From an uncultured Bacilli bacterium (GTDB taxonomy: Bacteria; Bacillota_I; Bacilli_A; RF39; UBA660), in NCBI GenBank assembly GCA_947631035.1, contig CANRJW010000002.1:3233-67232 (forward strand): DNA of 64,000 bases. Reading direction: 5' to 3'. A program made the translations under genes and the position numbers. This document shows positions 1,550-44,357 of the stretch, piece by piece (positions within the stretch are counted from its first letter, which is position 1; every line of letters begins with the position of its first letter). Under the pieces are notes generated by a model. It saw only the letters and a program-made list of their open reading frames with translations, ran no database searches and had not been told where the DNA came from.

Positions 1550-2632
1550 TTAATCTCTTCCACTTTTGAAATTATAAATTGGTTTAATAATTCTCCATAT
1601 GCACACTGTAGGTTCAATTTTATCCACAATTTCTTGAGGTGGTTTATAGGCGAAAGGAGATTCATCAATCGTATTTGCACTTATAGAAGATGAATAAATA
1701 CCCTCCATGGATTTCTTATAATCCTCTAAGGAAATATTTTTCTTAGCTTCACTTCTACTCATGATTCTTCCAGCACCATGAGGTGCAGAACAATTCCAAT
1801 CTTCATTACTAAGTCCTGTACCCATAATTGCACCGTCTCTCATATTTAAAGGAATGATTACACCTTCTCCTTTATATGCAGCTACAGCACCTTTTCTAAC
1901 AATACTATCTGCAATATAATTGTGAGGACAATCAAATGCGCCTTCTGGATTTAACTTCATCATTTTAATGATAACTTCCGCAATTGCTTCTCTATTCATT
2001 TTTGCAAATTGATTACAAAGTTGACAATCAAAGAGGTAGTGGAACATGTGAGTATCTTCAAGATAACATAAGCGGTCAGGGGTTCCAGGATCAAGTTCTT
2101 TTAACTTCTTTCTTCTAAGTGCAAGATATTGATAAACCTGAGCTACCTGCTTTCCAAGATTCCTACTGCCTGTATGAATAACAAGGTATTTATAACCATT
2201 CTCATCTTGATCAACCTCAATGAAATGGTTACCTCCTCCTAAAGTACCAAGGGAGGATTGGAGTTCATCAATATGTTTAAGCTCTTTATAACAGTCAAGC
2301 TGTTTTAGGAGTTTGTTAAGTTCTTTACTACGGTCCCCAACATGTTTGCCACTGGGAATATAATTTCTAATAACGGCATCCAGCCTTGGAAGATCAATAT
2401 CAACTTTTCCAAGGTAGACGACATACATACCGCAACCAATATCGGTACCAATGGTAAAAGGGGAAATTTTATCTTTAAATTTGGCGGTAAACCCAACTAC
2501 AGAATCCTTTCCTGCATGGACATCGGGCATGATCCTGATATGGTCAAACAATCCAGATTTTCTCATTTCATGTAGTTGAGACATAGTAGCTGGATCTATA
2601 TTGTCAGTAAATATCTTGAGATCCTCATTCAT
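1550..2632 (-). CDS. rtcB: RtcB-family RNA ligase (3'-phosphate/5'-OH RNA-splicing ligase)
   Basis: 360 aa with the RtcB signature motifs PDVHAG and GGGNHF plus a metal-binding His pattern. Placement next to the tRNA-repair genes fits. Confidence 0.85.
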   Translation of the reverse strand: MNEDLKIFTDNIDPATMSQLHEMRKSGLFDHIRIMPDVHAGKDSVVGFTAKFKDKISPFTIGTDIGCGMYVVYLGKVDIDLPRLDAVIRNYIPSGKHVGDRSKELNKLLKQLDCYKELKHIDELQSSLGTLGGGNHFIEVDQDENGYKYLVIHTGSRNLGKQVAQVYQYLALRRKKLKELDPGTPDRLCYLEDTHMFHYLFDCQLCNQFAKMNREAIAEVIIKMMKLNPEGAFDCPHNYIADSIVRKGAVAAYKGEGVIIPLNMRDGAIMGTGLSNEDWNCSAPHGAGRIMSRSEAKKNISLEDYKKSMEGIYSSSISANTIDESPFAYKPPQEIVDKIEPTVCIWRIIKPIYNFKSGRD

Positions 2633-3464
2633 ATCTCTTCTTCATAGCCTCATATGTATTTTTCATGAGCATTGCAACCGTCATTGGTCCTACACCTCCA
2701 GGTACGGGAGTGATAAAAGAACATCTAGGTGCAACATTTTCAAAATCAACATCACCGCAAAGCTTGTTATTCTCATCTCTATTGATGCCAACATCAACAA
2801 CTACTGCACCTTCTTTTATCATGTCAGCAGTAATAAATTTGGGCTTGCCAATTGCGACAATGAGAATATCTGCCTGTAGGCACTCTTCTTTTAGGTTTTT
2901 AGTCTTAGAGTGACATATAGTTACAGTGGCATTTCTATTAAGCATAAGAGCGGCCATGGGCTTTCCTACAATATTAGAACGACCTACAATAACTACTTTT
3001 TTACCTTCAATCTCAATATTATATTCATCAAGCAGTCTCATAATACCCGCAGGCGTACACGCCACAGTACATTCCTTACCTGCAAAGAGTCTACCCATGT
3101 TGATATCCGTAAATCCATCAACATCTTTTTCTGGATCAATTGAATTGAGGACTTTATTACTATCAAGATATGCGGGAAGAGGAAGCTGTACTAAGATACC
3201 ATCTACCGTCTCATCGTAGTTCATATTCTCAATAGAGCTCTCAAGACTTTCTTGAGTGCATGTTGTTAGGTAAGCATCCTCAACTTCGATACCTACCTCT
3301 TGACTGGCTTTTGTTTTATTCCTGACATAAGTAGCAGATGCAGAGTTATCGCCCACCCTAAAAATTACAAGGCGGGGTGAGCGCCAAAAACCGTTTTCCT
3401 GAATAGCCTGTTTGGCTTCGTTTCTGACTTTTTGAGCAACTGCCCTCCCATCAATTATTACCAT
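2625..3464 (-). CDS. folD: bifunctional methylene-THF dehydrogenase/methenyl-THF cyclohydrolase FolD
   Basis: Motifs DGILVQLPLP and GRSNIVGKPMA with a Rossmann-type GxxGxxG region. Start set at the internal Met (MVIIDGRAV). Confidence 0.85.
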   Translation of the reverse strand: MVIIDGRAVAQKVRNEAKQAIQENGFWRSPRLVIFRVGDNSASATYVRNKTKASQEVGIEVEDAYLTTCTQESLESSIENMNYDETVDGILVQLPLPAYLDSNKVLNSIDPEKDVDGFTDINMGRLFAGKECTVACTPAGIMRLLDEYNIEIEGKKVVIVGRSNIVGKPMAALMLNRNATVTICHSKTKNLKEECLQADILIVAIGKPKFITADMIKEGAVVVDVGINRDENNKLCGDVDFENVAPRCSFITPVPGGVGPMTVAMLMKNTYEAMKKRYE

Positions 3465-3804
3465 TTTTAACCTCTGCATCCAGTAGTGTTGCAAGATAGT
3501 TTTCTTCTACTTCTCGCATTTTTTGTTCTGATAAGACAGTATCCCCATAAAGAGCTTCCTGAAACTCATCTACTTGCTTAATCTCTTCTTCGGTCAGCTC
3601 CGTATCGGTGACGATTTCGCAGAACGCATCAAACTCGCAGATATCCACAGCTTGGCAAACCGTGAAAAGCATTCTCTTGCCGCGAGACCGTGCAAACTCT
3701 GCCGCTTCCTTCTTCCGCTGCTCGAAGTTCTCCAGATTGAGATCGGAATAGTCCCCGCTCGAAATCCCGTTGCGGTACAGCTTGATAAGAATTGTCCCTT
3801 CCAT
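3451..3804 (-). CDS. hypothetical acidic protein in a locally GC-rich segment
   Basis: 117 aa ORF; local GC about 50% versus about 35% for the window. Confidence 0.45.
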   Translation of the reverse strand: MEGTILIKLYRNGISSGDYSDLNLENFEQRKKEAAEFARSRGKRMLFTVCQAVDICEFDAFCEIVTDTELTEEEIKQVDEFQEALYGDTVLSEQKMREVEENYLATLLDAEVKNGNN

Positions 3805-6155: not shown

Positions 6156-6650
6156 TCAATCCAGATTTTCTTTACACCAAACTTCAATATTGTGCTTAAA
6201 TTTTTCTTCAATCTCTTCTTCATTGAAAGAACCAAAGAAGGTGTTAAGAAGAGTTCTGTAACAGCACTTATTAGGACAAAATTTAGGATTATCAAAAACA
6301 GGACTATCGTCACCGTTAAGAATCAGCATCAAAGCTGCTGCTACTCCTGCACTTCTGCTGATGCCAGCACCACACTGAACAATAATCTGATCTGCTTTGT
6401 CGAGGTTATCGTTAACAAATTTGATAATTCTCTCAGCATCTCTTCTAGTCATGTGGTTGAATTCATCAGATTCCACGTCATCGAATCTGAGAAAAAGAAT
6501 ACCAACGATGTTAGGATTACCCCTATTGAAGGTATTAGCAGACTCTTCAAGTGCAGCTATTGAGATTATGATTGTCCTCTCCTGGAAGTTCGTAAAGCTG
6601 AAATCACTTGCCTCTTTCCTGGACATTATTTTAATTCTCTTAGTATTCAT
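6156..6650 (-). CDS. Cys-based protein phosphatase (PTP/dual-specificity-like)
   Basis: VQCGAGISRSAG matches the CX5R(S) phosphatase P-loop (HCxAGxxRS). Confidence 0.5.
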   Translation of the reverse strand: MNTKRIKIMSRKEASDFSFTNFQERTIIISIAALEESANTFNRGNPNIVGILFLRFDDVESDEFNHMTRRDAERIIKFVNDNLDKADQIIVQCGAGISRSAGVAAALMLILNGDDSPVFDNPKFCPNKCCYRTLLNTFFGSFNEEEIEEKFKHNIEVWCKENLD

Positions 6651-7008
6651 CTTTAAGCCTTGTCGCATTTTTCATATGTTCAACAGTGTATTTGATCTCT
6701 GCCCATCTTGAACCAAACAGTGGTTCTCCCTTTTCATTTCTCACTTGCAGGTGCTCTCTATCCTGTTTCAAGTTTTCAATTGCACTAAGCAGATCAATCA
6801 TGTTAAGTTTAAGAGGAACAGGAACAGTTTCAGTACCCCAAACCTGCATATTATCATCCATCCAAACATGCCAAGTCTCAGTATGATTAGATCTATCAAT
6901 ATTTAGGATTACATGGTTATCTCCTGAGAGATAAAGATACTTATAAAGAATCGAAATATCATCAAACTTGCAAAGATTGTCAATAAATGTTTCAAATTTC
7001 ATATCCAT
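6640..7008 (-). CDS. hypothetical protein
   Basis: 122 aa ORF. Confidence 0.4.
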   Translation of the reverse strand: MDMKFETFIDNLCKFDDISILYKYLYLSGDNHVILNIDRSNHTETWHVWMDDNMQVWGTETVPVPLKLNMIDLLSAIENLKQDREHLQVRNEKGEPLFGSRWAEIKYTVEHMKNATRLKDEY

Positions 7009-8255: not shown

Positions 8256-9392
8256 TTAGTCTTTCAAATTTAGAACCTGCATTTTGTAGTTTCTACTGCA
8301 TCTAAGAAACCATTCACGTACATATGCATCAAGATCACACTCAGGACGATCATTGTACCATCTAAAAAGTAAAGCACTGATATCTTTATGATTATTCATT
8401 ACGTAAAGTGCAAAGTCCTTTTTAGTTTCATACGGGCCATGGGCTTCCGTATCCTCAATAGCGCTAACACTTTCTTGGATAAAATAATCAAGTAAGCATG
8501 TAAGCTCTGCAAAACGTTTTTGATATTCAGGAAAGTATGCTAAGAATTCATTTTGTTCATTATGTTCAATGATTTCAAGAATGCGAACCTTACTCTGTAC
8601 GCCGTTGTTTGCAAGATAATGAGCTTGCAACCATTTTGTGTTCTTAATTTTTACTCGATTCCAGTACTTATCAACTGCGACAAATCCTTCTTCATCCCAA
8701 TCCATTTCTTCCAGCGCTTTCTTACACTCATCAAGATTAGAAAGATTGTAGCTGCAAGGGCGCCAAACAGGGAGATCTTTTATATCAGGAAATTGTTCTT
8801 CAAAGGTATTAACATCCCTCATGCCGATAAGATAGACACGAGCAGTATCGTAGGGAACAACTACTCGATTATAAGGAGAAACAAGTTCAAAGGTGTAGCA
8901 CTTAGAGCAATCAAGATGAGTAAATAAACTGTCGAGAGTGGTAATATCATTCCACAAAGCTTCTTCAAACAATGCTTTAAAAGAAATGGGCTTAGAGAGT
9001 AGTGGAGAATTAACCTTAGCGTCAGTAGCATCAAGAGTACCCGAGGTGCTAATTCTCCATTTACTATGAATATTGTCCCACCATACTAAGATTTTAGAAC
9101 CATCTACCTTTTCTTGAACACTTACTGAGTCCCAGTCAATTTCAGCTGCGTATTGCTCCCCAACGTTGTAGAACTTAAAGAAGCTGAGAGCAACAGGGGT
9201 AAGGGTGTGCTTATTAACAACCAGGCCCCTGCACTCATTACAAATCTTTTGACTAAAATCACTAGCTATTTGATTGTATTTAAGAAGAACATAATCACCA
9301 TCTTCGCTTAAAGAGAGATTATAAGGAGGATTGGTAAGTATGTCCTTCCAGTTGTCCAGATTGTTTCTCATTAATTTTATCGTCTCAAGCAT
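8256..9392 (-). CDS. rnlA: ATP-dependent RNA ligase 1 (T4 RnlA-like tRNA repair ligase)
   Basis: Matches remembered T4 Rnl1 landmarks: ECRG, a nucleotidyl-transfer KVDGS motif at about residue 95, and EGFVAV..VKIK (motif V). Confidence 0.8.
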   Translation of the reverse strand: MLETIKLMRNNLDNWKDILTNPPYNLSLSEDGDYVLLKYNQIASDFSQKICNECRGLVVNKHTLTPVALSFFKFYNVGEQYAAEIDWDSVSVQEKVDGSKILVWWDNIHSKWRISTSGTLDATDAKVNSPLLSKPISFKALFEEALWNDITTLDSLFTHLDCSKCYTFELVSPYNRVVVPYDTARVYLIGMRDVNTFEEQFPDIKDLPVWRPCSYNLSNLDECKKALEEMDWDEEGFVAVDKYWNRVKIKNTKWLQAHYLANNGVQSKVRILEIIEHNEQNEFLAYFPEYQKRFAELTCLLDYFIQESVSAIEDTEAHGPYETKKDFALYVMNNHKDISALLFRWYNDRPECDLDAYVREWFLRCSRNYKMQVLNLKD

Positions 9393-10231: not shown

Positions 10232-12364
10232 TTATTGGATTAAAGACATAATTTTCTCCACATCATTACTGTGAATAATTGTCTGTCCATTTCCAATACC
10301 TTTTAACACCTTATCTGTTACAATTATATCTGCATCCCCCATGTTATCTACTACTTCAGTTGCCATGTAGGTAAATAGAGATTGAAGATTAAGAACGTTG
10401 GTGGATTCAATATAGGAAATTAAGAAATCGAAATCTGTGGTTCCCGCCACTGTTGCATTGCTATCTTTATTTACATTTAACCATACAAAATCATTTGCAT
10501 CAATATCAATAGCAAATAGGTAAGAGAAAGTAGTATCACCTTGAACTAAGAACGAACTCTTTACCGTTTTAGGTTCAAATACTTCTCCACTATCCACCTT
10601 TTCGCGTAACATGTAGCCTGCAGTGCACGTACAGGAATTAAAAGGAGTACCTGAATATACATTATCACAGACTACCAAATATTTAATATTTGGATACCTA
10701 CTCTTAAACTTATCGAGGCTTACATCGATGTATTCTGAACCACCCTCATAGCCGCGTGTTTGGTCTCCAGAGAAGCAAATAGCATCATTTTGATTATTGT
10801 AGAAGGTTCTCCAAGAGAACTCAATCAAGTTGCCCTTATCATCAATGCCCATAACTGAAAGATCTATGTCATTTACTTTTTCCCAATAGGTGAATAAGCG
10901 TACAGTTCTACCATCTAAGTGAACTCTACTGCCCCTAGAAAGGACACCATAACCACTGTTGCCTGCAGTTTCTTGGATAGGTACTGCTTTTAAGTTCATA
11001 CCTTCATCAATATATACTTTATTTAATCTTCCCTTGAGAAGTGTTTGTAATTTATTTTCAAGAGCAGAAAGAATTAATTGTTTATCTTTCTCAGTAATAT
11101 AGGAACGTCTTTTATTAACTTCCCATTGTTCTTCTGTATGTGTTTTAAGAAGATTTTGATGTGTGAATTTAAAATGTCTAGCATTTCTATTATCTACATT
11201 ATAGTAGCTATAGTTATAAAGTTGTTGAATAAGAGCAACAGCTGCATTTGACGTAAAGGCAGTGTCTATCACGTACTTTTTATCTTCTTCATTATTGCAA
11301 CGACTAAGAAGATAGTTCATGTGTCTGAGCACCGCCGTGGCGCCCTTCGCATGAGTTAAGATAACGCAGGCTGATTTAATATCTCCTTGAGCGATGTATT
11401 TTTCTACATAAGACATTTTTGACTTAATATCATCATTGTAGATAATAGAAACAAAATAGCTCTCAAGGTCCGTTTGGGGGTTGAAGTGAATGTGATGAAG
11501 TAGGCCCTTCCACAGCTTTCTCTTCTCAAGACACTCAATCACTTGATTATGGGTGACCCGATATTGATGGCCAGTTAGGTTTACAAGCTGTTTTTCGATC
11601 ACTCTTCTAATAACAGCAGTGATGAATTTTCTATCTCTATTTGGTAAATTTAATTTAGTAAGCTTAGGAAGTTTTGATTTATCCCTAAACATGTAAGAAC
11701 TGTCCGGTTTTTCCGCCTGTATCATTTCCTCTACTAACTTTATAATATCAGGAAGACATAAAAAAGATGTAAGTTCAAGATCACGTATATCATTGAGCAG
11801 TTTAATCGCAGTATTTTTACTTGCAATTGAGGTGGGGGCATAGGAATAATCAACAATGTATTGCTTTACTAAATCATATTGAGATTTACTTAAGGGGCGA
11901 GTTGAGGATAAAAGATCATCCACACAAGAACGAAGCTTATCATGTGCTTGTTTCTCTGTTAGAATCTCAAAATGCTTCACCTCTGTTTTCTCATCAAGCA
12001 CACCTCTTTCAATCTGCTCTTCAAAGATAGATCTTGTACCTTCACCCTCAAAATCATTAAGACCATAAGTAATGAAGTACGAATAGAGTTGGTCCAACAA
12101 TAATTGATCTTTTGTAAGCTCACGAACACTTGAGGGAAATCCAATATAGAAGGGAGCAGGTACTGAAACTGTTCCTATTCCTGTTTCAGCTATATGAAGC
12201 ATGTCAACAGTTGCAAGGTTTGCGTTCTTATCAATTACAATATTAAATAGTTTTCCGAGACCAACAAGTGCATTAAACGTATACTCAGCAGAATGTTGAG
12301 GCTCTGCGGGATCGCTTACAAAATAACCCTTGGTAAATAAATAATCTTTAAATACATCTTTCAT
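10232..12364 (-). CDS. large hypothetical protein (710 aa)
   Basis: Long intact ORF at the head of the ligase operon; no motif confidently recognised. Confidence 0.55.
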   Translation of the reverse strand: MKDVFKDYLFTKGYFVSDPAEPQHSAEYTFNALVGLGKLFNIVIDKNANLATVDMLHIAETGIGTVSVPAPFYIGFPSSVRELTKDQLLLDQLYSYFITYGLNDFEGEGTRSIFEEQIERGVLDEKTEVKHFEILTEKQAHDKLRSCVDDLLSSTRPLSKSQYDLVKQYIVDYSYAPTSIASKNTAIKLLNDIRDLELTSFLCLPDIIKLVEEMIQAEKPDSSYMFRDKSKLPKLTKLNLPNRDRKFITAVIRRVIEKQLVNLTGHQYRVTHNQVIECLEKRKLWKGLLHHIHFNPQTDLESYFVSIIYNDDIKSKMSYVEKYIAQGDIKSACVILTHAKGATAVLRHMNYLLSRCNNEEDKKYVIDTAFTSNAAVALIQQLYNYSYYNVDNRNARHFKFTHQNLLKTHTEEQWEVNKRRSYITEKDKQLILSALENKLQTLLKGRLNKVYIDEGMNLKAVPIQETAGNSGYGVLSRGSRVHLDGRTVRLFTYWEKVNDIDLSVMGIDDKGNLIEFSWRTFYNNQNDAICFSGDQTRGYEGGSEYIDVSLDKFKSRYPNIKYLVVCDNVYSGTPFNSCTCTAGYMLREKVDSGEVFEPKTVKSSFLVQGDTTFSYLFAIDIDANDFVWLNVNKDSNATVAGTTDFDFLISYIESTNVLNLQSLFTYMATEVVDNMGDADIIVTDKVLKGIGNGQTIIHSNDVEKIMSLIQ

Positions 12365-13485: not shown

Positions 13486-15150
13486 TCAAAAAAGTCCTGT
13501 AATTTTCCCTTCTTCATCAATATCCATCTTTTCCGCTGCAGGAATAGAAGGCAATCCAGGCATTGTCATAATATTGCCTGTAAGCACCACAATGAACCCT
13601 GCACCTGCTGACACCTTTACATTTCTAACTGTAATATTAAAATGTTCAGGCGCTCCTAACTTACTTGCATCATCGGAGAAAGAATACTGTGTCTTAGCTA
13701 TACAAATTGGAAGAGATCCAAATCCAAGACTTTCTAATCTTTTAATTTGTTCAAGTGCTTCGGGCGTGTAGTCAACACCGTCACCACCATAAATCTTTTG
13801 AGTAACTGCTAGAATCTTATCTTTAATAGATAATTTTTCATCATAAGAATAATTAAAATTACTCTTCTGTTCGCAAAGTTCAACAACCCTGCTAGCAAGA
13901 TCGATATTACCTGCACCGCCATCTGCCCATGCAGTAGACAGAATAGCATCGATACCTAGCTTTTTACATTCTTCTATTACAAGAGAAATTTCAGCATCAG
14001 TATCAGAGGGGAACTTGTTAATAGCAACAACGGCAGGGAGATGGTAGACATTAGTAATATTAGAGACATGTCTAAGAAGATTAGGAAGACCGTTCTTCAA
14101 TGCTTCTAAATCTTCATGTTCCAATTCAGTCCTAGTCAGTCCACCATGCATCTTAAGAGCCCTAATTGTTGCTACTACAACAACAGCATTGGGGGTAAGG
14201 CCTGCAGTTCTACATTTAATATCAAGAAATTTTTCGGCACCGAGGTCAGCACCAAACCCTGCCTCTGTAACTACATAATCAGCAAGCTTAAGGGCTGTCT
14301 TAGTAGCGATGATGGAATTACATCCATGTGCAATATTAGCAAATGGACCACCATGAACAATAGCAGGCGTAGCTTCTAGTGTCTGAACAAGATTGGGTTT
14401 GAGTGCATCTTTAAGGAGAATAGCCATAGCACCTACGGCTTTTAGGTCTCTCGCAGTTACAGGCTCTCCATCACAAGTATAACCTACAATTATTCTTGCA
14501 AGTCTCTCCTTAAGATTCGAAAGGGAGGTAGATAAGCATAGAATTGCCATAATTTCACTAGCAACTGTAATATCAAATCCATCCTTCCTGGGCACACCTG
14601 ATTTAGGTCCACCAAGGCCATCCTCGACATAACGAAGCTGACGATCGTTCATATCAACACATCTCTTCCATGTAATCTTTTCAGGATCAATGTTAAGAGG
14701 GTTACCGTGAAAGATACTATTATCAAGCATAGCAGCAAGAAGATTGTTTGCTGCACCGATAGCGTGAAAATCTCCGGTGAAATGGAGGTTAATATCTTCC
14801 ATCGGGACTACCTGTGCATAACCACCGCCGGCAGCTCCACCCTTAATACCAAAAACAGGGCCAAGAGAAGGCTCACGTAGAGCAGCTACTGTTTTATGCC
14901 CAAGTCTTGCTAGACTATCTGCAAGTCCAATCGTTGTTGTAGTCTTACCCTCACCTGCAGGTGTTGGGGTAATGGCTGTAACAAGAATTAGCTTACCATC
15001 AGGTTTATTTTGATTCATAATAGATAAGTCGAGCTTGGCTTTATATTTACCATAGTACTCGACCTCATCATCTGAAATGCCTAGGTAATGTACAGCATTA
15101 CTAATAGGCTTTATAGTAATTTGTTGTGCAATTTCAATATCTGTTAACAC
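13486..15150 (-). CDS. fhs: formate--tetrahydrofolate ligase (formyl-THF synthetase)
   Basis: 554 aa with the [16 protein letters not shown]-loop and an overall match to the Fhs architecture. Confidence 0.9.
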
Positions 15151-15182
15151 TCTTCACCTCTTGCTTATACCTAACCATTTAA

Positions 15183-15377
15183 TTACAGGTCCTCTAACAG
15201 GTATTTTTTAACACCCTCTTTGCAAATATCTGAAGAAATATAACTATTTGTTTGGCATTCCTTCAGTTTAGTACACAGAAAGCAAAGTTCAAGGTCCACA
15301 CTTGAACATAGATAGTCAACCATGTCATCAACTGTTTCGTATAAGTGATATTTATTTAGTACCTCAAAACGTGTCAT
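15183..15377 (-). CDS. hypothetical Cys-containing small protein
   Basis: 64 aa ORF. Confidence 0.3.
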   Translation of the reverse strand: MTRFEVLNKYHLYETVDDMVDYLCSSVDLELCFLCTKLKECQTNSYISSDICKEGVKKYLLEDL

Positions 15378-15496
15378 TTAGGCTACCTTATAAAAATAAA
15401 CAGTATGGGTGAGATTAAATTATGCATCCTACTTCTATTGGATACTATAACATAAATTTCTAAGGTACCTTAAACATCTAAATTAAAAAGTTTTCT

Positions 15497-15886
15497 TTAA
15501 TACGAAGGAAAAGAACATAGGCCTTCGTCTATATCTTCTTCACTCCTTCCAAGAATGCTAGCCACGTTCTTGATATCTCTCACTGTCAACCTACCCACTC
15601 TTCCGCCAAGATTCATGTGATTAAGATCCACCAACTTATCTAGTCTCGCGGTGGATGGTTTTCTTAAACCTGCCTCTCTCCAATCGATGATCTTATAGTC
15701 GCCTGAATCCCATTCTCTAACCCCGTGACTAGTAATAGGAGCAACATTTAATATAATTCCAGCGCTGTTATCAAGAATGATAACTGGCCTAGTTTTGTAC
15801 CTTGGTGTGAGCAGGTCTTCGTCTTCTTCGTAGGGAATAGCCCCGATGTAAATATCATAAACTCTCAAGGCAAGGGGCCCTCCCAA
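15497..15886 (-). CDS. MazF/PemK-family endoribonuclease toxin homologue
   Basis: KTRPVIILDNSAGIILNVAPITSHG matches the PemK/MazF core (RPxhhhs...hh.P.TS); length is also typical. Confidence 0.6.
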   Translation of the reverse strand: MGGPLALRVYDIYIGAIPYEEDEDLLTPRYKTRPVIILDNSAGIILNVAPITSHGVREWDSGDYKIIDWREAGLRKPSTARLDKLVDLNHMNLGGRVGRLTVRDIKNVASILGRSEEDIDEGLCSFPSY

Positions 15887-16068
15887 AGATCATCATAAAG
15901 GCCGTCGTCTTCCGGGTAATAGCATTCCTTGGGGAGGACAGTGTAGTGATAAGTGTGCTTGACAAAGTTTTTTGCGACTCTCTCCGCTTCCTCTATCACT
16001 GCGTCTTCATTAAGCATGTCCTCGTTCATACTTTTTGCTTCTTCCCAAATGTTTGGCATCATATGCAA
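15865..16068 (-). CDS. small acidic protein upstream of and overlapping the MazF-like gene (candidate cognate partner)
   Basis: 67 aa, acidic, with a 22-nt overlap onto the MazF-like start. Confidence 0.35.
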   Translation of the reverse strand: MHMMPNIWEEAKSMNEDMLNEDAVIEEAERVAKNFVKHTYHYTVLPKECYYPEDDGLYDDLWEGPLP

Positions 16069-16089
16069 CTCCTAATTTTACATACATTA

Positions 16090-16164
16090 TGGTGTGAGTG
16101 AGGAGACTTGAACTCCCGACTCCTTGATTAAAAGTCAAGTGCTCTACCACTGAGCTACACCCAC
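16090..16164 (-). tRNA. tRNA-Lys (anticodon TTT)
   Basis: Fold GTGGGTG..CTTGA-CTTTTAA-TCAAG..GGGAG-TTCAAGT-CTCCT..CACTCAC-A-CCA. Confidence 0.8.
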
Positions 16165-16421: not shown

Positions 16422-16511
16422 TGGTGGAAGAGGAAGGAATTGAACCTCCTCGATGTCTGATCAGGACATCTCTGCACTTTTACAGATGCAGTATCAATCT
16501 GCGTCTCTCCC
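16422..16511 (-). tRNA. tRNA-like element, type-II-like, anticodon arm unresolved
   Basis: Acceptor GGGAGAG/CTCTTCC, T-arm GGAGG-TTCAATT-CCTTC and CCA are present, but the internal region (CTGCA-TCTGTAAAAG-TGCAG plus a GATGTC..GACATC hairpin) does not give a canonical 7-nt anticodon loop. Confidence 0.35.
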
Positions 16512-16514
16512 ATC

Positions 16515-16601
16515 TGGTGGGCCGGGATGGAGTTGCACCACCGGTGTTTCTGATGTAACGGATTTACAGTCCGCCCCAATCGCTTCTATGGATACCGACC
16601 C
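16515..16601 (-). tRNA. tRNA-Tyr (anticodon GTA), type II
   Basis: Fold GCGGA-CTGTAAA-TCCGT, acceptor GGGTCGG/CCGGCCC-A-CCA; the T-loop TGCAACT is unusual. Confidence 0.6.
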
Positions 16602-20463: not shown

Positions 20464-20569
20464 ATAAATACTAATGCATGTTAGTAAAGAATTTTGTAAG
20501 AAGTACTTTTAGCTCACAGATTGTGATTGTCAATTTCCACCACGTGAAGGTAGTACCTCATCGGAAATC

Positions 20570-20640
20570 TACAGGGTGGAGGAGTCGAACCCCAATCGCC
20601 GGATATAAGCCGGGTGCAACGACCGCATCACCTACCCTGC
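20570..20640 (-). tRNA. tRNA-Ile (anticodon TAT); CCA not encoded
   Basis: Acceptor GCAGGGT/ACCCTGT with a G1.U72 pair, anticodon arm CCGG-CTTATAT-CCGG, T-loop TTCGACT. Confidence 0.55.
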
Positions 20641-25533: not shown

Positions 25534-26556
25534 TTAATTCATTTCCAGGCTCATCTTGTTACACTTGATGAGCAGTTTTTCGATATCATTGAAATAAGGC
25601 TTGTCAGGGAGCTTAGTTGTAGCCTCTGCTTCTCTGACTTTTGCTTTTAACTCATCAATCATAACATATAAATCAGGGCTGATTTCACCTTCAGTAGACA
25701 TATACTTACCGTTGCGCACAGACATTAGAAAATCTTTATCTTTCTCTCTATACGTAACTACTTCACCATCTTTAAGAAGATCATAGCACATTAAGAGAAG
25801 ACGAAGAAGATGCATAATATGCTTATTAAGCTTCATATCTTCTTTATTGTTTCTGTGCCCGATATGCTTGTAAGTCTTGATAATATTATTCATCTCTTCC
25901 CACATCATTTTATAATCACGAAGTGGATAATGTTTGAAATTACAATCCATGAAGATTTCAGTTTCCATATCTTCATTTACTGCAGTATCAGCATAAAGAT
26001 GAATATCATTTTCTCCAAATGGATGGTACTTCTCATGGAATGTATTCATTGCACTGTTGATGGAATTGAGAATATGTTCTTCCTGTTTGGGTTGAGATAA
26101 TTTTTCTCTACATACATAATTCTCAAGACGTGCAAGTTGAGCTGAAGCAAACCCAAAGAACTTACCTACTGCTCTCTTAGATAAGAACAAATGTCTGTTA
26201 GCAAGAATTTCTTTACCAATGTCGTTTAGATAAATGTAATGTTCAGGTTTGCATCCAAGGATTTCAAGAGTGTTGGGATTATTTTCAGTAAGAAGCTCAA
26301 ACATTCTGGAAATTGAATAAATAGTAGTATCTGTTTCTTTTTCTACTACCTGTTCAAATCTATGAAGCCCGAAAATTTCATCAGAACTGTGTACAGCAAT
26401 ACCTCTCACATCAACATCAGATGTGGGAGTAGAAAGACCATACGCATGGCTTCCACCTAAAGTGAGAAGACAAATTCTATTGCCTAGGTGAGGTTCAGTT
26501 CTTAAAAAATCATATGCAGGTGTTTTAAGGCTTTCTTTAATTTCCTGAATTGTCAT
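25534..26556 (-). CDS. Pol-beta-superfamily nucleotidyltransferase (minimal NTase fold with a helical C-terminal domain)
   Basis: LTLGGSHAYGLSTPTSDVDVRGIAV matches the hG[GS]x9-13Dh[DE]h motif; 340 aa. Confidence 0.55.
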   Translation of the reverse strand: MTIQEIKESLKTPAYDFLRTEPHLGNRICLLTLGGSHAYGLSTPTSDVDVRGIAVHSSDEIFGLHRFEQVVEKETDTTIYSISRMFELLTENNPNTLEILGCKPEHYIYLNDIGKEILANRHLFLSKRAVGKFFGFASAQLARLENYVCREKLSQPKQEEHILNSINSAMNTFHEKYHPFGENDIHLYADTAVNEDMETEIFMDCNFKHYPLRDYKMMWEEMNNIIKTYKHIGHRNNKEDMKLNKHIMHLLRLLLMCYDLLKDGEVVTYREKDKDFLMSVRNGKYMSTEGEISPDLYVMIDELKAKVREAEATTKLPDKPYFNDIEKLLIKCNKMSLEMN

Positions 26557-39956: not shown

Positions 39957-40565
39957 ATGAAAGCATGCGAGGTGATGAGTTTACTTCACATAACTAGGCC
40001 CACTCTGTGTAAGTATCTTAAAGTAGGTTATATAAAAGCGACTAAGACGGCCACAGGTCAATATATTTATGATGATGATTCAGTATATGCTTTTATAGGT
40101 CAAAAGAAGCATAAAGAAAATAAGATAGTAGTTTCATATGCCAGGGTATCCACACAGAATCAAAAAGATCAACTAATAAGTCAAAATCAACGAATATATG
40201 AATCCTGCATATCAAGAGGGCTTAATCTAGACATGCAATTATCTGATATCAAGTCTGGACTATCTGAAAACAGGGAAGGATTGCAGAAACTGATCAGGCT
40301 GGTCATTGAAAATAAAGTTAAGTTGATAGTTATTGAGAATAAAGATAGGCTAGTTAGGTTTGGATATGAAATATTGGAATCTGTATTTAGGTATTTCGGT
40401 ACTTCAATTTTAGTGCTGAATGACTCCATCCAAAATAAATCATATGAACAAGAGTTAACCGATGACCTAATTTCAATTATTCATTATTTTTCTATGAAAT
40501 CTTATTCACATAGAAGAAAATTAAATAAAATAAGAAGAGAATTAGAGGAAAAAGAAGGAGACTAA
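39957..40565 (+). CDS. tnpA: IS607-family transposase TnpA (serine recombinase with an N-terminal MerR-like HTH)
   Basis: The HTH MSLLHITRPTLCKYLKVGYI is followed by the catalytic block VVSYARVSTQNQKDQL. One of only two plus-strand genes in the window. Confidence 0.8.
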   Translation: MKACEVMSLLHITRPTLCKYLKVGYIKATKTATGQYIYDDDSVYAFIGQKKHKENKIVVSYARVSTQNQKDQLISQNQRIYESCISRGLNLDMQLSDIKSGLSENREGLQKLIRLVIENKVKLIVIENKDRLVRFGYEILESVFRYFGTSILVLNDSIQNKSYEQELTDDLISIIHYFSMKSYSHRRKLNKIRRELEEKEGD

Positions 40566-40568
40566 GTA

Positions 40569-41960
40569 GTGGAAAATTTGATTACACTTAAAATCAAATA
40601 TTCATTATCAAGCAGTATAGATAGGGATACTCTACTCTCTTTTATAAAAAACTACAATAATGTTTATAGATTTACAGCTAATAGATTATTAGAAAATCCT
40701 AAACTAGGTACCAAAAGAATCACTGAACTGCAAAACAACTTGAATAATATTTTTATAGATTCTCACCTTAAGAACTCCTGCATATTTGATGCTAAAACAT
40801 TAATTAAGCAATCAGAACAGGGCGATAAAATAATATTTGGTGGCAAGCAGTTATTGAATAAAAGGAATAAACATCAAATATCTAATGAAGAATGGAAGCT
40901 TCAAAGATTGGTTCCTCTATGTAGTGTTGGAGAAGCAGATAAGAAGGCTAATAGGAAATTTACTATCTTATCCTCATCTCAAATATTATTCAAACCCAAC
41001 AAAAGCACTCACATTGTTCTTAACTTATGTAGTTTAAGAAAGAATTGGAAGTCTCAGTTGGAAAGACTTTCGTTACTGCAGAATCAAAAAGTATTACCTA
41101 TAACCTACAGATTAGATCTGGATTATATTTATATTACATATGATTGTAATCTCACATCCACGAGTAAGTCTAAGAGTAAAACACTGGATAGAATACTATC
41201 TATAGATATGAATCCAAACTATTTAGGATATGATATATGTGACTGGAGCGGTGAATATCCAAATAGAATAGTTAAATCTGAGGTGCTATCTCTTAAACCC
41301 TTAAATGATAAAGACAGTAGCTTAAAAAGTAAGAGCTTGAATAGCTCCTCAAAAGAGAGGGCATGTATTACAGACAAGAGAGAATATGAGGTAATTCAAT
41401 TAGCGCATCAGATAGTCAAGCAAACAATTCATTATGGGTGCGAACTAATTGCGATTGAAGACTTAGTTATTCTTCCCGGCAACCTAAACAAAGGAAAGAA
41501 ACTAAATAAATTATGCAATAATCAATGGTGTAGAGATAAGTTTGTACGAGTACTGGAAAAACTGTGCAAGCTAAGTAACATTAAATTATTAAAAATGCCT
41601 GCAAATTATTCAAGCTACACCGGTAATTTGTGTTATAGAAAATATAACTTACCTGATATGTGCTTATCAGCTCTTGAAATAGGTAGAAGAGGTTATGAAT
41701 TTAACCATCAATATCTATTAAAAGATAAAGATATAAAAAAGAATATAGTTTTAAACAACTCCCAAGAATTTGTATCTAATGCAAAACAGTCGTTGGAAGA
41801 ATTAGGGTTGCATTTAGGTATAGATTCAGTTGACTTAAAGCAAATATTCAAGGAAGTTAAAAACTCTAAATTGAGATATAGAGTTCAGCTAGATGAAAAT
41901 CAATGCTGTTTTAGGAAATTCTATAAAAAGAAATATATAGATTTATACAGGTTTGTATAG
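40569..41960 (+). CDS. tnpB: TnpB-like RuvC-fold protein (IS605/IS607 OrfB; OMEGA-type RNA-guided nuclease family)
   Basis: RuvC-I LSIDMNPNYLGY, RuvC-II IAIEDL, a degenerate zinc-finger region (YSSYTGNLC...) and RuvC-III-like PDMCLSALEIGRRG; sits 4 nt downstream of tnpA. Confidence 0.7.
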   Translation: MENLITLKIKYSLSSSIDRDTLLSFIKNYNNVYRFTANRLLENPKLGTKRITELQNNLNNIFIDSHLKNSCIFDAKTLIKQSEQGDKIIFGGKQLLNKRNKHQISNEEWKLQRLVPLCSVGEADKKANRKFTILSSSQILFKPNKSTHIVLNLCSLRKNWKSQLERLSLLQNQKVLPITYRLDLDYIYITYDCNLTSTSKSKSKTLDRILSIDMNPNYLGYDICDWSGEYPNRIVKSEVLSLKPLNDKDSSLKSKSLNSSSKERACITDKREYEVIQLAHQIVKQTIHYGCELIAIEDLVILPGNLNKGKKLNKLCNNQWCRDKFVRVLEKLCKLSNIKLLKMPANYSSYTGNLCYRKYNLPDMCLSALEIGRRGYEFNHQYLLKDKDIKKNIVLNNSQEFVSNAKQSLEELGLHLGIDSVDLKQIFKEVKNSKLRYRVQLDENQCCFRKFYKKKYIDLYRFV

Positions 41961-42018
41961 GTCTGAATAGAATTTACATCTTATATGCTCCTTTGATATT
42001 AGTATTTGTGTATTTTTC

Positions 42019-43122
42019 TTATGGTGTAAGTCCAGAATCAGGTCCGCTGCCGCCGTCCTGAATGGAATTGAAGTAGTCGTTGATGCCGCCGGAGAGGTCT
42101 CCGCCCATCGAACTGTCGCTGCCGAGACGATCCATCGCTTCCTGCTGCGCCTGATCGAAGCTGTCGCCATAGTACGTACTCCCGTCGTTGATGTTGCCGC
42201 TGTTATCGCCGCTGCTCCCACCGTTACCGCTGCCTGTCGGAGGCGGAGAGTACTTGGGCGGGGTATCGGGATCGGACGGAGCGTCATTGTCATTCTTCGG
42301 CCAATCCATATTGGGCACATAGAAGGACGGATTTTCCGCTTCTTCGACGCTGTCCTCGAACGCGAGGAAGACGGCCGAGACGGTGATGTTGCCCTGCACG
42401 TCAAGATCCTGCCTGTAGGCTTCGGTGACGCCGTCGGACCAACCGACGAAGATGTGCTCGCTGTCTCCGATCGCGAGGACGGCGGGCGCGTCTTCCCCTT
42501 CCGTGACGATGAGCTCCTGTGCGAGCGCGGGCTCTTCGGACCAATCGTCGGTGTACATGACGATCGAGCCGCCCTTATTCGCCGTGTAGGTCACGGTGTA
42601 CGTTCTCGGGATATATTCGCCCATGAGAAGTTCCGCGCCGCCGGGGATGACGTCCGCGACATAGAGCGAACCGACGGTCAACATCGAGGTGCCGAAGAAG
42701 ACGCCGACGCCGAAGGTGATGACGAGCGCCGCAGACACTGCGAGCTTGACGAGCATGTGATCGACCGAGCCGAGGGCCTTCATCGTGTCTTCCCTCTGCT
42801 TCATCGCGACGTAGGAAGCGTCGTTTTCGAGCTCGACCATCGTGAGCACACGCTCTTCGAGGCCGAGACGGTCGACGCGCTGAGCGATCGCTTTGGTCGT
42901 GGGACGGTAGAGCTTCAAATAAAGGAGCGGCGTCAGCCCCGCAAGAAGGGCCGCGAACACGCCGAGGCCGATCCAAAGCCCCGCCTTAAACCCTGCAAGC
43001 CAGCAGATAAGCACGGTGAGCGAAAGTGCGCCGAAGGCGATGCTTCCGCTGAGCAGAAATGCTTTCAAGATGCCTTCACGGGCGATCCGTGCACGGTACT
43101 TTTTAAAAACATTGTCAGCCAT
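42019..43122 (-). CDS. foreign-origin membrane protein (about 60% GC; three N-terminal TM helices, Gly/Ser/Asp-rich C-terminal tail)
   Basis: Strong compositional contrast with the rest of the window; both strands show the stop-free spurious ORFs typical of high-GC DNA. The phage-type TTGCTAAATT motif lies upstream at 43173-43182. Confidence 0.55.
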   Translation of the reverse strand: MADNVFKKYRARIAREGILKAFLLSGSIAFGALSLTVLICWLAGFKAGLWIGLGVFAALLAGLTPLLYLKLYRPTTKAIAQRVDRLGLEERVLTMVELENDASYVAMKQREDTMKALGSVDHMLVKLAVSAALVITFGVGVFFGTSMLTVGSLYVADVIPGGAELLMGEYIPRTYTVTYTANKGGSIVMYTDDWSEEPALAQELIVTEGEDAPAVLAIGDSEHIFVGWSDGVTEAYRQDLDVQGNITVSAVFLAFEDSVEEAENPSFYVPNMDWPKNDNDAPSDPDTPPKYSPPPTGSGNGGSSGDNSGNINDGSTYYGDSFDQAQQEAMDRLGSDSSMGGDLSGGINDYFNSIQDGGSGPDSGLTP

Positions 43123-43175
43123 TGTTGTTACCTCCTCACAAATTTTTTATGTTAAATAGGTAGTAGTCACATAAT

Positions 43176-43709
43176 TTAGCAATCATTTAGTATGTTCTTA
43201 TAAACCACATATTGCATAGAAACTGCATGAATATTCTCTTCTGTATCCTTTATATCCACTGTACGAGATGGTGTCTCATAGAGAAACATAAAGCCCTCAT
43301 CGAGATTATCTAAATTTCTAATGAAAGTATCTGCATTACCGTCAATATCAACCCTAGTAACAAAAGCATAATCACAGAAAGGAAGTAGAGTATTATAGAC
43401 CATCCCACCACCTATTACCATTGCTTTGTCTACAAGATCGTTTTTAGTAATATAGTCAGATAGTTCTTTTATATTTGTTACATGAACTACACTTTCCGGT
43501 AGTTTTTCATCTTCAGGTGCAATAACTATATTTAATCTATTCTTCAGAGGCTTACCGCCTGGCAGGGAATGTAAAGTATTTAACCCCATTATTACAGGTT
43601 TGTAAGATGTATTAAGAACAAAGCTTTGCATATCTTCAGGAATGTTGAAGAGAAGTTTTCCATTCTTTCCAATACCCCAATTCTTATCTACACAGACAAT
43701 TGCGTTCAT
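43176..43709 (-). CDS. folA: dihydrofolate reductase
   Basis: MNAIVCVDKNWGIGKNGKLLFNIPEDMQSF matches the DHFR N-terminal NADPH/folate-binding signature; 177 aa. Confidence 0.8.
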   Translation of the reverse strand: MNAIVCVDKNWGIGKNGKLLFNIPEDMQSFVLNTSYKPVIMGLNTLHSLPGGKPLKNRLNIVIAPEDEKLPESVVHVTNIKELSDYITKNDLVDKAMVIGGGMVYNTLLPFCDYAFVTRVDIDGNADTFIRNLDNLDEGFMFLYETPSRTVDIKDTEENIHAVSMQYVVYKNILNDC

Positions 43710-43715
43710 TTCTAT

Positions 43716-44357
43716 TTAATCCCCGTTATTCAGCTTTTCCCAGCTAATTCTTAAGAAGGCTAGAGAGTTTCCGTTGCAGTTATGTGCACAATCAGCTTTA
43801 ACAAAAAACCAAGAGGCTTGCAAATCTTTCATGGCACCGCCCACAGTCTCACGAGACAGGTCTTTAGAAAGGTAGTAGATACATTTGTGTTCTCCCCTTT
43901 CGGCTGCCTTTTTAATTTCTTTTCTAATTTTTGCGGATAGCTCTCTTACTTCCTTCTCGCTCGTCATTAAGTCAATTGCTTTCTTAGCTAATTTTTGAGC
44001 ATACACTGCATCAAACTTATCAATAGGAATATCATCAAAATTAGTTTCTTCAGGAAATTCGGGCTTAAGCCATTCTATAAAATCGCTCTCAAGCTTCTCA
44101 GACACCGAAAGGACAGTGCATATAAATGTTTCTATAATTTCGTCTGAAGAACTGTCAGGTGGTAGTTTTAAGAACGCGTGATAGGGAGAGGAGGTACAGT
44201 CGCCAAAATTGATATAAAAAGAATTACAATCTGTTTTTAAATGGAAAGGCGTACCTTGTATTGTAAAGCAAATATTCTTCTCTGCAAGGAATTGATTAAG
44301 TGCTTCCCTTGCGGTGGTGATGTTGTTATGTATCCAACTCTTTAGTGCATTATTCAT
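43716..44357 (-). CDS. hypothetical protein
   Basis: 213 aa ORF. Confidence 0.45.
   Translation of the reverse strand: MNNALKSWIHNNITTAREALNQFLAEKNICFTIQGTPFHLKTDCNSFYINFGDCTSSPYHAFLKLPPDSSSDEIIETFICTVLSVSEKLESDFIEWLKPEFPEETNFDDIPIDKFDAVYAQKLAKKAIDLMTSEKEVRELSAKIRKEIKKAAERGEHKCIYYLSKDLSRETVGGAMKDLQASWFFVKADCAHNCNGNSLAFLRISWEKLNNGD

Follow-up and report, generated by a model that had tools for sequence, protein, structure and literature searches.

What does a phage do with a small toxin–antitoxin-like gene pair placed directly behind its tRNA genes? The question is raised by two overlapping genes at 15497–16068, on the minus strand, of a 64,000-nucleotide (nt) stretch of contig CANRJW010000002.1 (GenBank assembly GCA_947631035.1), hereafter referred to as the window. 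The downstream gene encodes a putative endoribonuclease toxin with the MazF/PemK fold, here called T, and the upstream gene encodes a small acidic protein and putative antitoxin, here called A; related proteins carry P-numbers and related contigs carry L-numbers. We consider it likely that the pair is a functional type II-like toxin–antitoxin cassette with a minimal antitoxin, and that it is an accessory module of large (contigs of ~110–200 kb), tRNA-rich uncultured phages.

The sequence-only reading of this locus had taken the downstream open reading frame (ORF) for a MazF/PemK homologue, and Pfam, PHROG and profile-to-PDB searches all show this relationship. The Pfam family PemK_toxin (PF02452) matches T at 32.1–32.3 bits against a cut-off of 23.1 (E ~1.4e-7 to 1.5e-7, model positions 18–105 of 109), and PHROG 1936, 'MazF-like growth inhibitor', matches it at E = 5.5e-13. 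A HMMER scan of 1.84 billion representative proteins returned 344 relatives of T at E ≤ 1e-3, of which only 22 reach E ≤ 1e-10, so T belongs to a small, divergent branch. Forty-six of the relatives found in this way were aligned (alignment A1), and 45 of them match PF02452 individually. R27, P28, T46, L68, G92 and D98 are invariant in this alignment, and K25, R51, W63, G67, R75 and L94 are nearly so. Searched against PDB, the profile of the alignment finds S. aureus MazF, B. subtilis EndoA/YdcE, B. anthracis MoxT and M. tuberculosis MazF-mt3/mt1 over the whole length (E 2e-8 to 1e-3), with R27-P28 aligned to the RPV motif of the solved MazFs and T46 to their IT(A/G) motif. In MazF, the catalytic Arg ends the beta1–beta2 loop and the Thr/Ser is located on the following strand pair; the two residues are R25/T48 in B. 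subtilis and R29/T52 in E. coli numbering. The catalytic Arg/Thr that the sequence-only reading had singled out for checking are therefore present in aligned form, as R27 (codon at 15788–15790, minus strand; aligned to the RPV motif in the S. aureus and B. subtilis MazFs) and T46 (codon at 15731–15733, minus strand; IT(A/G) motif), both invariant in the 46 sequences.

The AlphaFold2 model of T, built on the same alignment, has a mean predicted local distance difference test score (pLDDT) of 90 and a predicted template modelling score (pTM) of 0.81, with seven strands followed by C-terminal helices, in agreement with the SH3-like beta-barrel of the MazF/CcdB fold. When this model was compared with PDB by Foldseek, the top 50 matches were all toxins of the MazF/PemK family (MazF, MoxT, YdcE), with template modelling (TM) scores of 0.6–0.77 (~0.7) and E-values down to 5e-7; in the viral structure library BFVD, the best named matches were phage 'PemK-like protein' entries (E ~1e-6 to 1e-4). 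T is a complete, genuine but divergent MazF/PemK-fold protein, and the resemblance goes far beyond chance. The ORF might also have been a truncated fragment, a possibility raised from the start; it is full length, as model positions 18–105 of 109 are covered and the predicted fold is complete, and this candidate was rejected. A CcdB-type gyrase poison was rejected as well, because the profile and fold matches are MazF/PemK and the residues that align with the RNase catalytic pair are conserved. By analogy with MazF, T would be a divergent endoribonuclease that retains the aligned catalytic Arg and Thr, cuts single-stranded RNA and leaves 2',3'-cyclic phosphate and 5'-OH ends, and it would be toxic.

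T shares only ~20% identity with the solved MazF structures, and the family has conserved elements of its own, TSHxxRxWDxGDY and DWxxAGL. A tblastn search of T against 50,697 GenBank phage records gave zero matches at E ≤ 0.01, which makes T a distant branch. When the locus was compared with GenBank phages by blastn, only tRNA matches appeared, and no close published phage relative of the locus was found. Neither NCBIfam nor PADLOC matched T, A or P0002, a relative of T described below, and pattern scans of IMG/VR, GTDB genomes and JGI metagenomes yielded no confirmed relative of T. The C-terminally extended T relatives (260–857 aa) were checked for the A motif and for fused domains that might be informative, and nothing of the kind turned up outside P0002. 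One protein of 1112 aa with 14 matching stretches (P0004) was dropped as a low-complexity repeat artefact.

The two ORFs first described at the locus, 129 aa for T (15497–15886) and 67 aa for A (15865–16068), are both present on the minus strand as maximal ORFs, each beginning at a TTG codon; the likely coding lengths are, however, 123 and 65 aa. The most likely start of T is the TTG at 15868, so that the gene covers 15497–15868 and ends in a TAA stop at 15497–15499. This start is favoured for four reasons. Gene callers also give a length of 123 aa on contigs that are 98% identical (P0001, 98% identical to T); those contigs have GTG in place of the TTG start codon of the window, which leaves the protein sequence of A unaltered; the homologous position is ATG in more distant relatives, where it overlaps the upstream stop as ATGA; and a Shine-Dalgarno sequence, GGAGG (15879–15883, minus strand), is located 10 nt before the TTG, within the 3' end of A. 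The gene of A covers 15865–16062 on the minus strand, from an ATG at 16062 to a TGA stop, with a Shine-Dalgarno sequence AGGAG (16069–16073, minus strand) 6 nt before the ATG; both Shine-Dalgarno sequences were taken from the nucleotide sequence itself. With these starts, the true overlap is the 4 nt of TTGA at 15865–15868, not the 22 nt given in the sequence-only reading. The two genes are small, adjacent and co-directional, A comes first and T second, and the Shine-Dalgarno sequence of T lies inside A; on this layout, A and T are translationally coupled via the TTGA overlap.

A has an isoelectric point (pI) of 4.2 and a net charge of about −11. It has zero matches in Pfam, NCBIfam and PADLOC, its best match in PHROG is insignificant (E = 0.29), and the profile of its family gives only a chance match in PDB (E = 0.77). 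A profile search recovered 27 clusters of A homologues (P0152–P0178) with lengths of 44–114 residues, most of them 55–67. In the family alignment (A3), the invariant positions are L43, P44, P50, E51, D52 and D53, with Y48 and Y56 close to invariant; the family signature is a C-terminal LPxExYxPEDDxYD(D/E)L, which in A corresponds to residues L43–W60, LPKECYYPEDDGLYDDLW (15883–15936, minus strand). Judged from its sequence, A represents a previously unannotated small protein family and is not a MazE/PemI homologue. The earlier idea of a small acidic upstream partner in antitoxin–toxin order is thus retained, in that A is conserved, co-varies with T and has a pI of 4.2, and is refined as to the family to which this partner belongs. 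Because the tail is invariant, acidic and aromatic, and by analogy with MazE, we infer that the PEDD tail of A is its toxin-binding element. This tail (LPxExYxPEDDxYDDL) would bind the RNA groove of the T dimer and block the active site, a role that in MazE falls to the C-terminal region.

The pairing of A with T extends well beyond the window. Across the window and the 26 related loci sampled, for which gene context was obtained from exact-protein look-ups only, a PEDD-motif protein of A type is located directly upstream of a T homologue in nine distinct pairs, with T identities down to 36–45%. With the window pair as the reference for all T identities, the other pairs are those of L001 (P0002, 58–59%), L006 and the first pair of L007 (P0003, 59%), the second pair of L007 and L008 (P0005, ~40%), L012 (P0008, ~38%), L015 (P0006, ~39%), L016 (a T of 128 aa, ~36%), L021 (a T of 113 aa) and L024 (P0009, 45%). 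Most of the A–T pairs have 4-nt start/stop overlaps, in the ATGA form in the relatives, and the pairwise identities of A and of T are correlated (Mantel r = 0.79, permutation p = 0.0016, eight pairs). Between the window and the 98%-identical contigs there are 10 nt differences across A and T, namely two amino-acid changes (Y38H in A, L20P in T), the start-codon swap from TTG to GTG and seven silent changes; this pattern is consistent with purifying selection on both genes. As a separate observation, the T homologue of L015 has an in-frame TAG at 181–183 where the database protein P0006 has Gln, so this relative is probably from a TAG-recoded phage.

The antitoxin partner of this PemK branch is not fixed. 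The T relative P0007 (44% identity; L013) is preceded by an overlapping SocA_Panacea gene and adjoins the holin and endolysin genes of a lysis module. Experiments have established the Panacea domain as a promiscuous antitoxin, and antitoxins of this type neutralise validated MazF-like toxins (PMC8832971); the P0007–Panacea pair therefore places this PemK branch within known antitoxin partner swapping. The P0009 pair (L024) adjoins a DUF6290-ParE toxin–antitoxin pair; by eye, the 86-aa partner of P0009 had seemed to be of ribbon-helix-helix (RHH) type, a suggestion that was dropped because Pfam gives it no support. Every T gene in the 26 loci has an upstream gene of A type or Panacea type, and an orphan T was not seen in this small sample. 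Such a distribution, with orphans on the antitoxin side alone, is expected of type II modules, and together with the Panacea and ParE neighbours it serves as a proxy for toxicity and neutralisation.

Orphan A genes, by contrast, were seen. They are found as intact ORFs at the same tRNA-Lys site in L010 and L011 and in a second tRNA array in L018–L020 (relatives P0164, P0165 and P0167); in the L018 type, the motif has drifted from PEDD to PGDD. Such genes raise the possibility that A acts primarily in anti-defence, as a MazE-like mimic that, in the manner of AimX and YosL, neutralises host abortive-infection toxins of MazF/PemK type, with T as a passenger or as the evolutionary source of A. Small phage proteins that inactivate host MazF have been documented (PMC10769878), and so have, for DarTG, orphan phage antitoxins that serve as counter-defence (PMC11825919, PMC11481870). 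This explanation is nevertheless very unlikely for the window. Its T is intact, with invariant aligned catalytic residues and mostly silent substitutions; the co-variation of A and T points to a cognate interaction and not to a host target; and the tandem duplication of the A–T pair in L007 would make little sense if only A mattered.

A further state of the module is seen in L001, where the C-terminus of the toxin P0002 is fused to a copy of the C-terminal half of an A-type protein, KNFKAYVKTIPHIAVLPKEWYNPEDDIYDELYRDDFQ, while a separate upstream A is still present. The AlphaFold2 model of this fusion, predicted from a mixed alignment of T and A sequences, shows a long helix and, after it, a short one that spans DDIYDELY; the segment that matches the N-terminal part of A is a single long helix.

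Where the cassette is located bears on how it is expressed. The gene of tRNA-Lys(UUU), with its CCA end encoded, is the last of the tRNA block (16090–16164, minus strand; found by ARAGORN, Rfam tRNA 73.6 bits), and its 3' end lies 27 nt upstream of the ATG of A on the same strand. The position of a phage-borne cassette immediately beside the tRNA block, as first described, is hence correct. A promoter scan, which did not cover other phage promoter types, found no sigma-70-like promoter in these 27 nt, and the A–T pair is for this reason probably a 3' trailer of the tRNA transcript. It would then be transcribed as a 3' extension of the tRNA array instead of from an autoregulated promoter of its own. 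With regard to the tRNA itself, tRNA-Lys(UUU) of related phages (L010 9824–9969; L007 ~900–1050) has an insertion of ~74 nt in the anticodon loop, possibly an intron, which the window tRNA-Lys lacks; identity to the window breaks exactly at this insertion.

The cassette lies in a hypervariable island (15174–16131, minus strand), delimited by blastn of the related loci against the window. When the window is compared with L007, identity is 95% on the tRNA side and 93% on the side of the formate–tetrahydrofolate ligase (FTHFS) gene but falls to ~69% over the cassette, where the gene content is different as well. One A–T pair occupies the site in the window and in L002–L005, two tandem pairs occupy it in L007, one pair with a fused A tail in L001, and an orphan A alone in L010. 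Given this variation in both identity and content, the site bears the marks of an accessory island with fast turnover. A second tRNA array holds other cassettes (L021, L012), with tRNA-Met on one side and tRNA-Gly or tRNA-Thr on the other, and that of L016 lies between the genes of Thg1 and a CCA-adding enzyme. T relatives also occur away from any tRNA, at the lysis cassette of L013 and the ParE pair of L024, so the tRNA linkage is recurrent in this phage lineage and is not a rule for the whole family.

This recurrent location invites an explanation in which T, instead of being a dormant addiction toxin, is a phage effector directed against host tRNAs or tRNA-like RNAs, the phage tRNA array supplies resistant replacements, the RNA-repair enzymes fix collateral damage and A provides timing or dosage control. 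Compared with the reading of the pair as an accessory toxin–antitoxin cassette, the role and the target are different, while T and A remain the same kinds of molecule. The cassette follows tRNA-Lys(UUU) by 27 nt with no promoter-like site in between, a second cassette type recurs in another tRNA array (L021, L012) and a third is found between Thg1 and CCA-adding enzyme genes (L016). In addition, the window has a set of RNA-repair genes, all on the minus strand (1550–2632, 8256–9392 and 25534–26556), which encode an RtcB ligase (E = 7.5e-56), a T4 Rnl1-like RNA ligase and an RlaP nucleotidyltransferase; RtcB seals exactly the end chemistry that cleavage of MazF type leaves. There is also precedent for the target, since tRNA-Lys is specifically cut by MazF-mt9 and by M. 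smegmatis MazF (PMC4756823, PMC6620280, PMC7033543).

The same facts can, however, be read otherwise. In large phages, tRNA arrays are zones of plasticity in general, and genes of a GIY-YIG homing endonuclease and of TnpB are located nearby; some T relatives have no tRNA in their vicinity (L013, L024); and the usual explanation of RNA-repair genes in large phages is that they counteract anticodon nucleases of the host (PMC7824862, PMC10264068). A scan for strand-specific k-mer avoidance in the transcribed strand (k = 4–6, Markov expectation), together with counts of known MazF motifs, gave nothing strand-specific or striking. The phage's own transcribed strand thus offers no sign of such avoidance, cleavage specificity is not readable from it, and no inference on the specificity of T is drawn. 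Altogether, we regard an attack on host tRNAs as unlikely. The fuller version of this idea, which we consider quite improbable, has the cassette wired into the tRNA economy of the phage: T would selectively destroy host tRNA (e.g., tRNA-Lys(UUU), in the manner of MazF-mt9) or other RNAs of the host translation machinery, the phage array would give cleavage-resistant substitutes, RtcB, Rnl1, Thg1 and CCA-adding enzymes would carry out repair, and co-transcription with the tRNAs together with a labile A would time the attack. If true, it would amount to a phage programme to 'replace the host tRNA pool', built from a domesticated toxin–antitoxin module.

Several observations weigh against the view that A and T form a functional type II-like toxin–antitoxin cassette. 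The loci sampled are few and come largely from related samples. T is itself acidic (pI 5.1), and its beta1–beta2 loop is strongly acidic (EEDEDLL...) and without the canonical G-S-E-Q of MazF, so that its choice of substrate, and even its activity, could differ from those of MazF. On the side of A, hhalign comparison with sequences entered by hand for E. coli and B. subtilis MazE gave a probability of 0.1%, and within its 65 aa and zero domain matches no AbrB/SpoVT or RHH DNA-binding domain is detectable. With no such domain in A and no sigma-70-like site ahead of its gene, the pair appears to lack the autoregulation that marks the operons of classical type II systems. Finally, the tail of the P0002 fusion is predicted with a pLDDT of only 57–69 and is not confidently docked, in a prediction made for a monomer (MazE binds the MazF dimer).

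Some of these features could be taken to mean that T is a catalytically dead or repurposed MazF fold, for instance an RNA-binding or structural protein, and that the pair is not a toxin–antitoxin system at all. The atypical acidic loop without the SEQ motif, the acidity of the protein as a whole and the mere ~20% identity of the nearest solved MazFs would all fit such a role. We nonetheless consider it extremely improbable, as the aligned catalytic Arg/Thr and the basic groove residues K25, R51 and R75 are invariant or nearly so, relatives of T pair with the bona fide antitoxin domain Panacea, and no T was seen without an upstream partner. The functional toxin–antitoxin cassette remains the likely reading, and the candidate benefits to the phage would include shut-off of host RNA, competition between phages and selfish persistence of the cassette. 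The roles suggested in the sequence-only reading (host shut-off, tRNA or mRNA processing, anti-defence decoy or antitoxin mimic) are speculative, and two of them stay in play through the orphan A genes and the repeated occurrence of the cassette in tRNA arrays.

Nearly all genes of the window are on the minus strand, the guanine–cytosine (GC) content is ~37%, and at least 15 tRNA genes are present (14 by ARAGORN and one more by Rfam). The related contigs reach 110–199 kb. The nearest cultured phages are the large Bacillota myophages Listeria LIS04 and Bacillus SP-15, with only ~30% identity in a Rad50-like protein. Within the tRNA block, the 412-nt gap between tRNA-Leu(UAG) and tRNA-Phe holds a tRNA missed by ARAGORN (16518–16601, minus strand, 37.8 bits) and a weak match to the clan of tRNA and transfer-messenger RNA (tmRNA) at 16422–16511 (minus strand, 18.8 bits), with a homologous tmRNA-clan match in L002 (5369–5457). 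A candidate ribozyme resembling that of hepatitis delta virus (HDV) is located at 20501–20569 on the minus strand (Rfam RF02682, HDV-F-prausnitzii; full model 1–74, 29.2 bits against a gathering threshold of 44, E = 0.0011 in a local scan). It begins at the base right after the 3' end of tRNA-Ile(UAU) (20570–20640), a placement to be expected if self-cleavage of the ribozyme makes the 3' end of this tRNA. In related contigs, genes close to the tRNA array encode ribosomal protein S21 (L001 9591–9809, L010 13706–13924), an IS605 OrfB/TnpB-like protein (L001 3512–4759) and a GIY-YIG homing endonuclease (L010 8195–9127).

Among the protein-coding genes of the window, two on the minus strand encode enzymes of folate one-carbon metabolism (2625–3494 and 13486–15150): FolD (methylene-tetrahydrofolate dehydrogenase/cyclohydrolase, E = 1e-76) and FTHFS, the latter assigned via the Pfam annotation of a 554-aa homologue in L002. 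A Rad50/Mre11-like pair, an SPFH protein and an exonuclease are also encoded. The minus-strand gene at 6156–6668 encodes a dual-specificity-phosphatase-like protein with weak matches to Rit1 and polymorphic-toxin phosphatases, and that at 10232–12364 a 710-aa protein with a sub-threshold match to the TerD domain. The sole block of plus-strand genes (39957–41960, plus strand, and 42001–44000) has a GC content of 30%, with both GC skew and AT skew reversed, and it adjoins a stretch of 48.7% GC; it encodes a transposase of serine-recombinase type (PHROG 6620, E = 1.6e-46), followed by a 463-aa ORF without matches, and looks like an inserted mobile element.

Toxin–antitoxin modules and phage PemK-like genes are already well known, and T alone is an ordinary, if new and distant, member of its family. 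What is new is threefold. First, A belongs to an unannotated family of very small putative antitoxins with an LPxExYxPEDDxYD tail, which could serve as a minimal MazF-inhibitor peptide. Second, the island varies in copy number and shows the module as an orphan A, a single pair, tandem pairs and a tail fusion, giving a compact picture of module turnover. Third, the cassette recurs in phage tRNA arrays and beside genes for tRNA maturation and repair, apparently without a promoter of its own. If the tRNA linkage is functional, it would join the question of what tRNA arrays and RNA-repair enzymes are for in large phages with that of what phage toxin RNases do.

Compared with known systems, the cassette is closest in outline to MazEF/PemIK (Kis-Kid), such as B. 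subtilis MazE-MazF (EndoAI/EndoA, PDB 4ME7) and S. aureus MazF (4MZM). T shares with them the fold, PF02452 and the aligned Arg/Thr; the order of antitoxin then toxin and the overlapping start and stop are the same; and A resembles their antitoxins in its small size, its acidity and the acidic and aromatic character of its C-terminal tail. In contrast to MazE, PemI and Kis, however, A is not homologous to them, is half their size with its 65 aa and has no AbrB/SpoVT or RHH DNA-binding domain. The window cassette also has no evident promoter of its own and lies on a large phage in a tRNA array, while T has ~20% identity and another beta1–beta2 loop. A reportedly fused toxin–antitoxin protein, CapRel(SJ46), offers a parallel to P0002, which carries an A tail in cis at the C-terminus of the toxin domain; unlike in CapRel(SJ46), this fusion is confined to one lineage, a separate upstream A is kept and the window T is unfused.

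A phage-borne MazF fold is common to T and the catalogued phage PemK/MazF-like proteins (PHROG 1936; in BFVD, the PemK/MazF toxin of Lactobacillus phage ViSo-2018a and gp171 of Brochothrix phage A9); compared with these, T is a distant branch, and even the best PHROG match of its PEDD-tail partner is insignificant (E = 0.29). Antitoxin partner swapping is well known (PMC8832971, PMC10440598). In the PanA-PanT systems, Panacea (DUF4065) antitoxins occur with MazF-like toxins (Kurata et al. 2022, PMC8832971), and the T relative P0007 has an overlapping SocA_Panacea partner of this kind, whereas the window A is not Panacea, is much smaller and has a different conserved motif. AimX and YosL, small proteins of phages phi3T/SPbeta, inactivate the MazF of the host by binding it via a short MazE-mimicking helix (PMC10769878), and they provide a precedent for the orphan A genes of related phages. 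They share sequence with MazE and target a host toxin, while A shows no MazE similarity here and is paired with the phage's own toxin.

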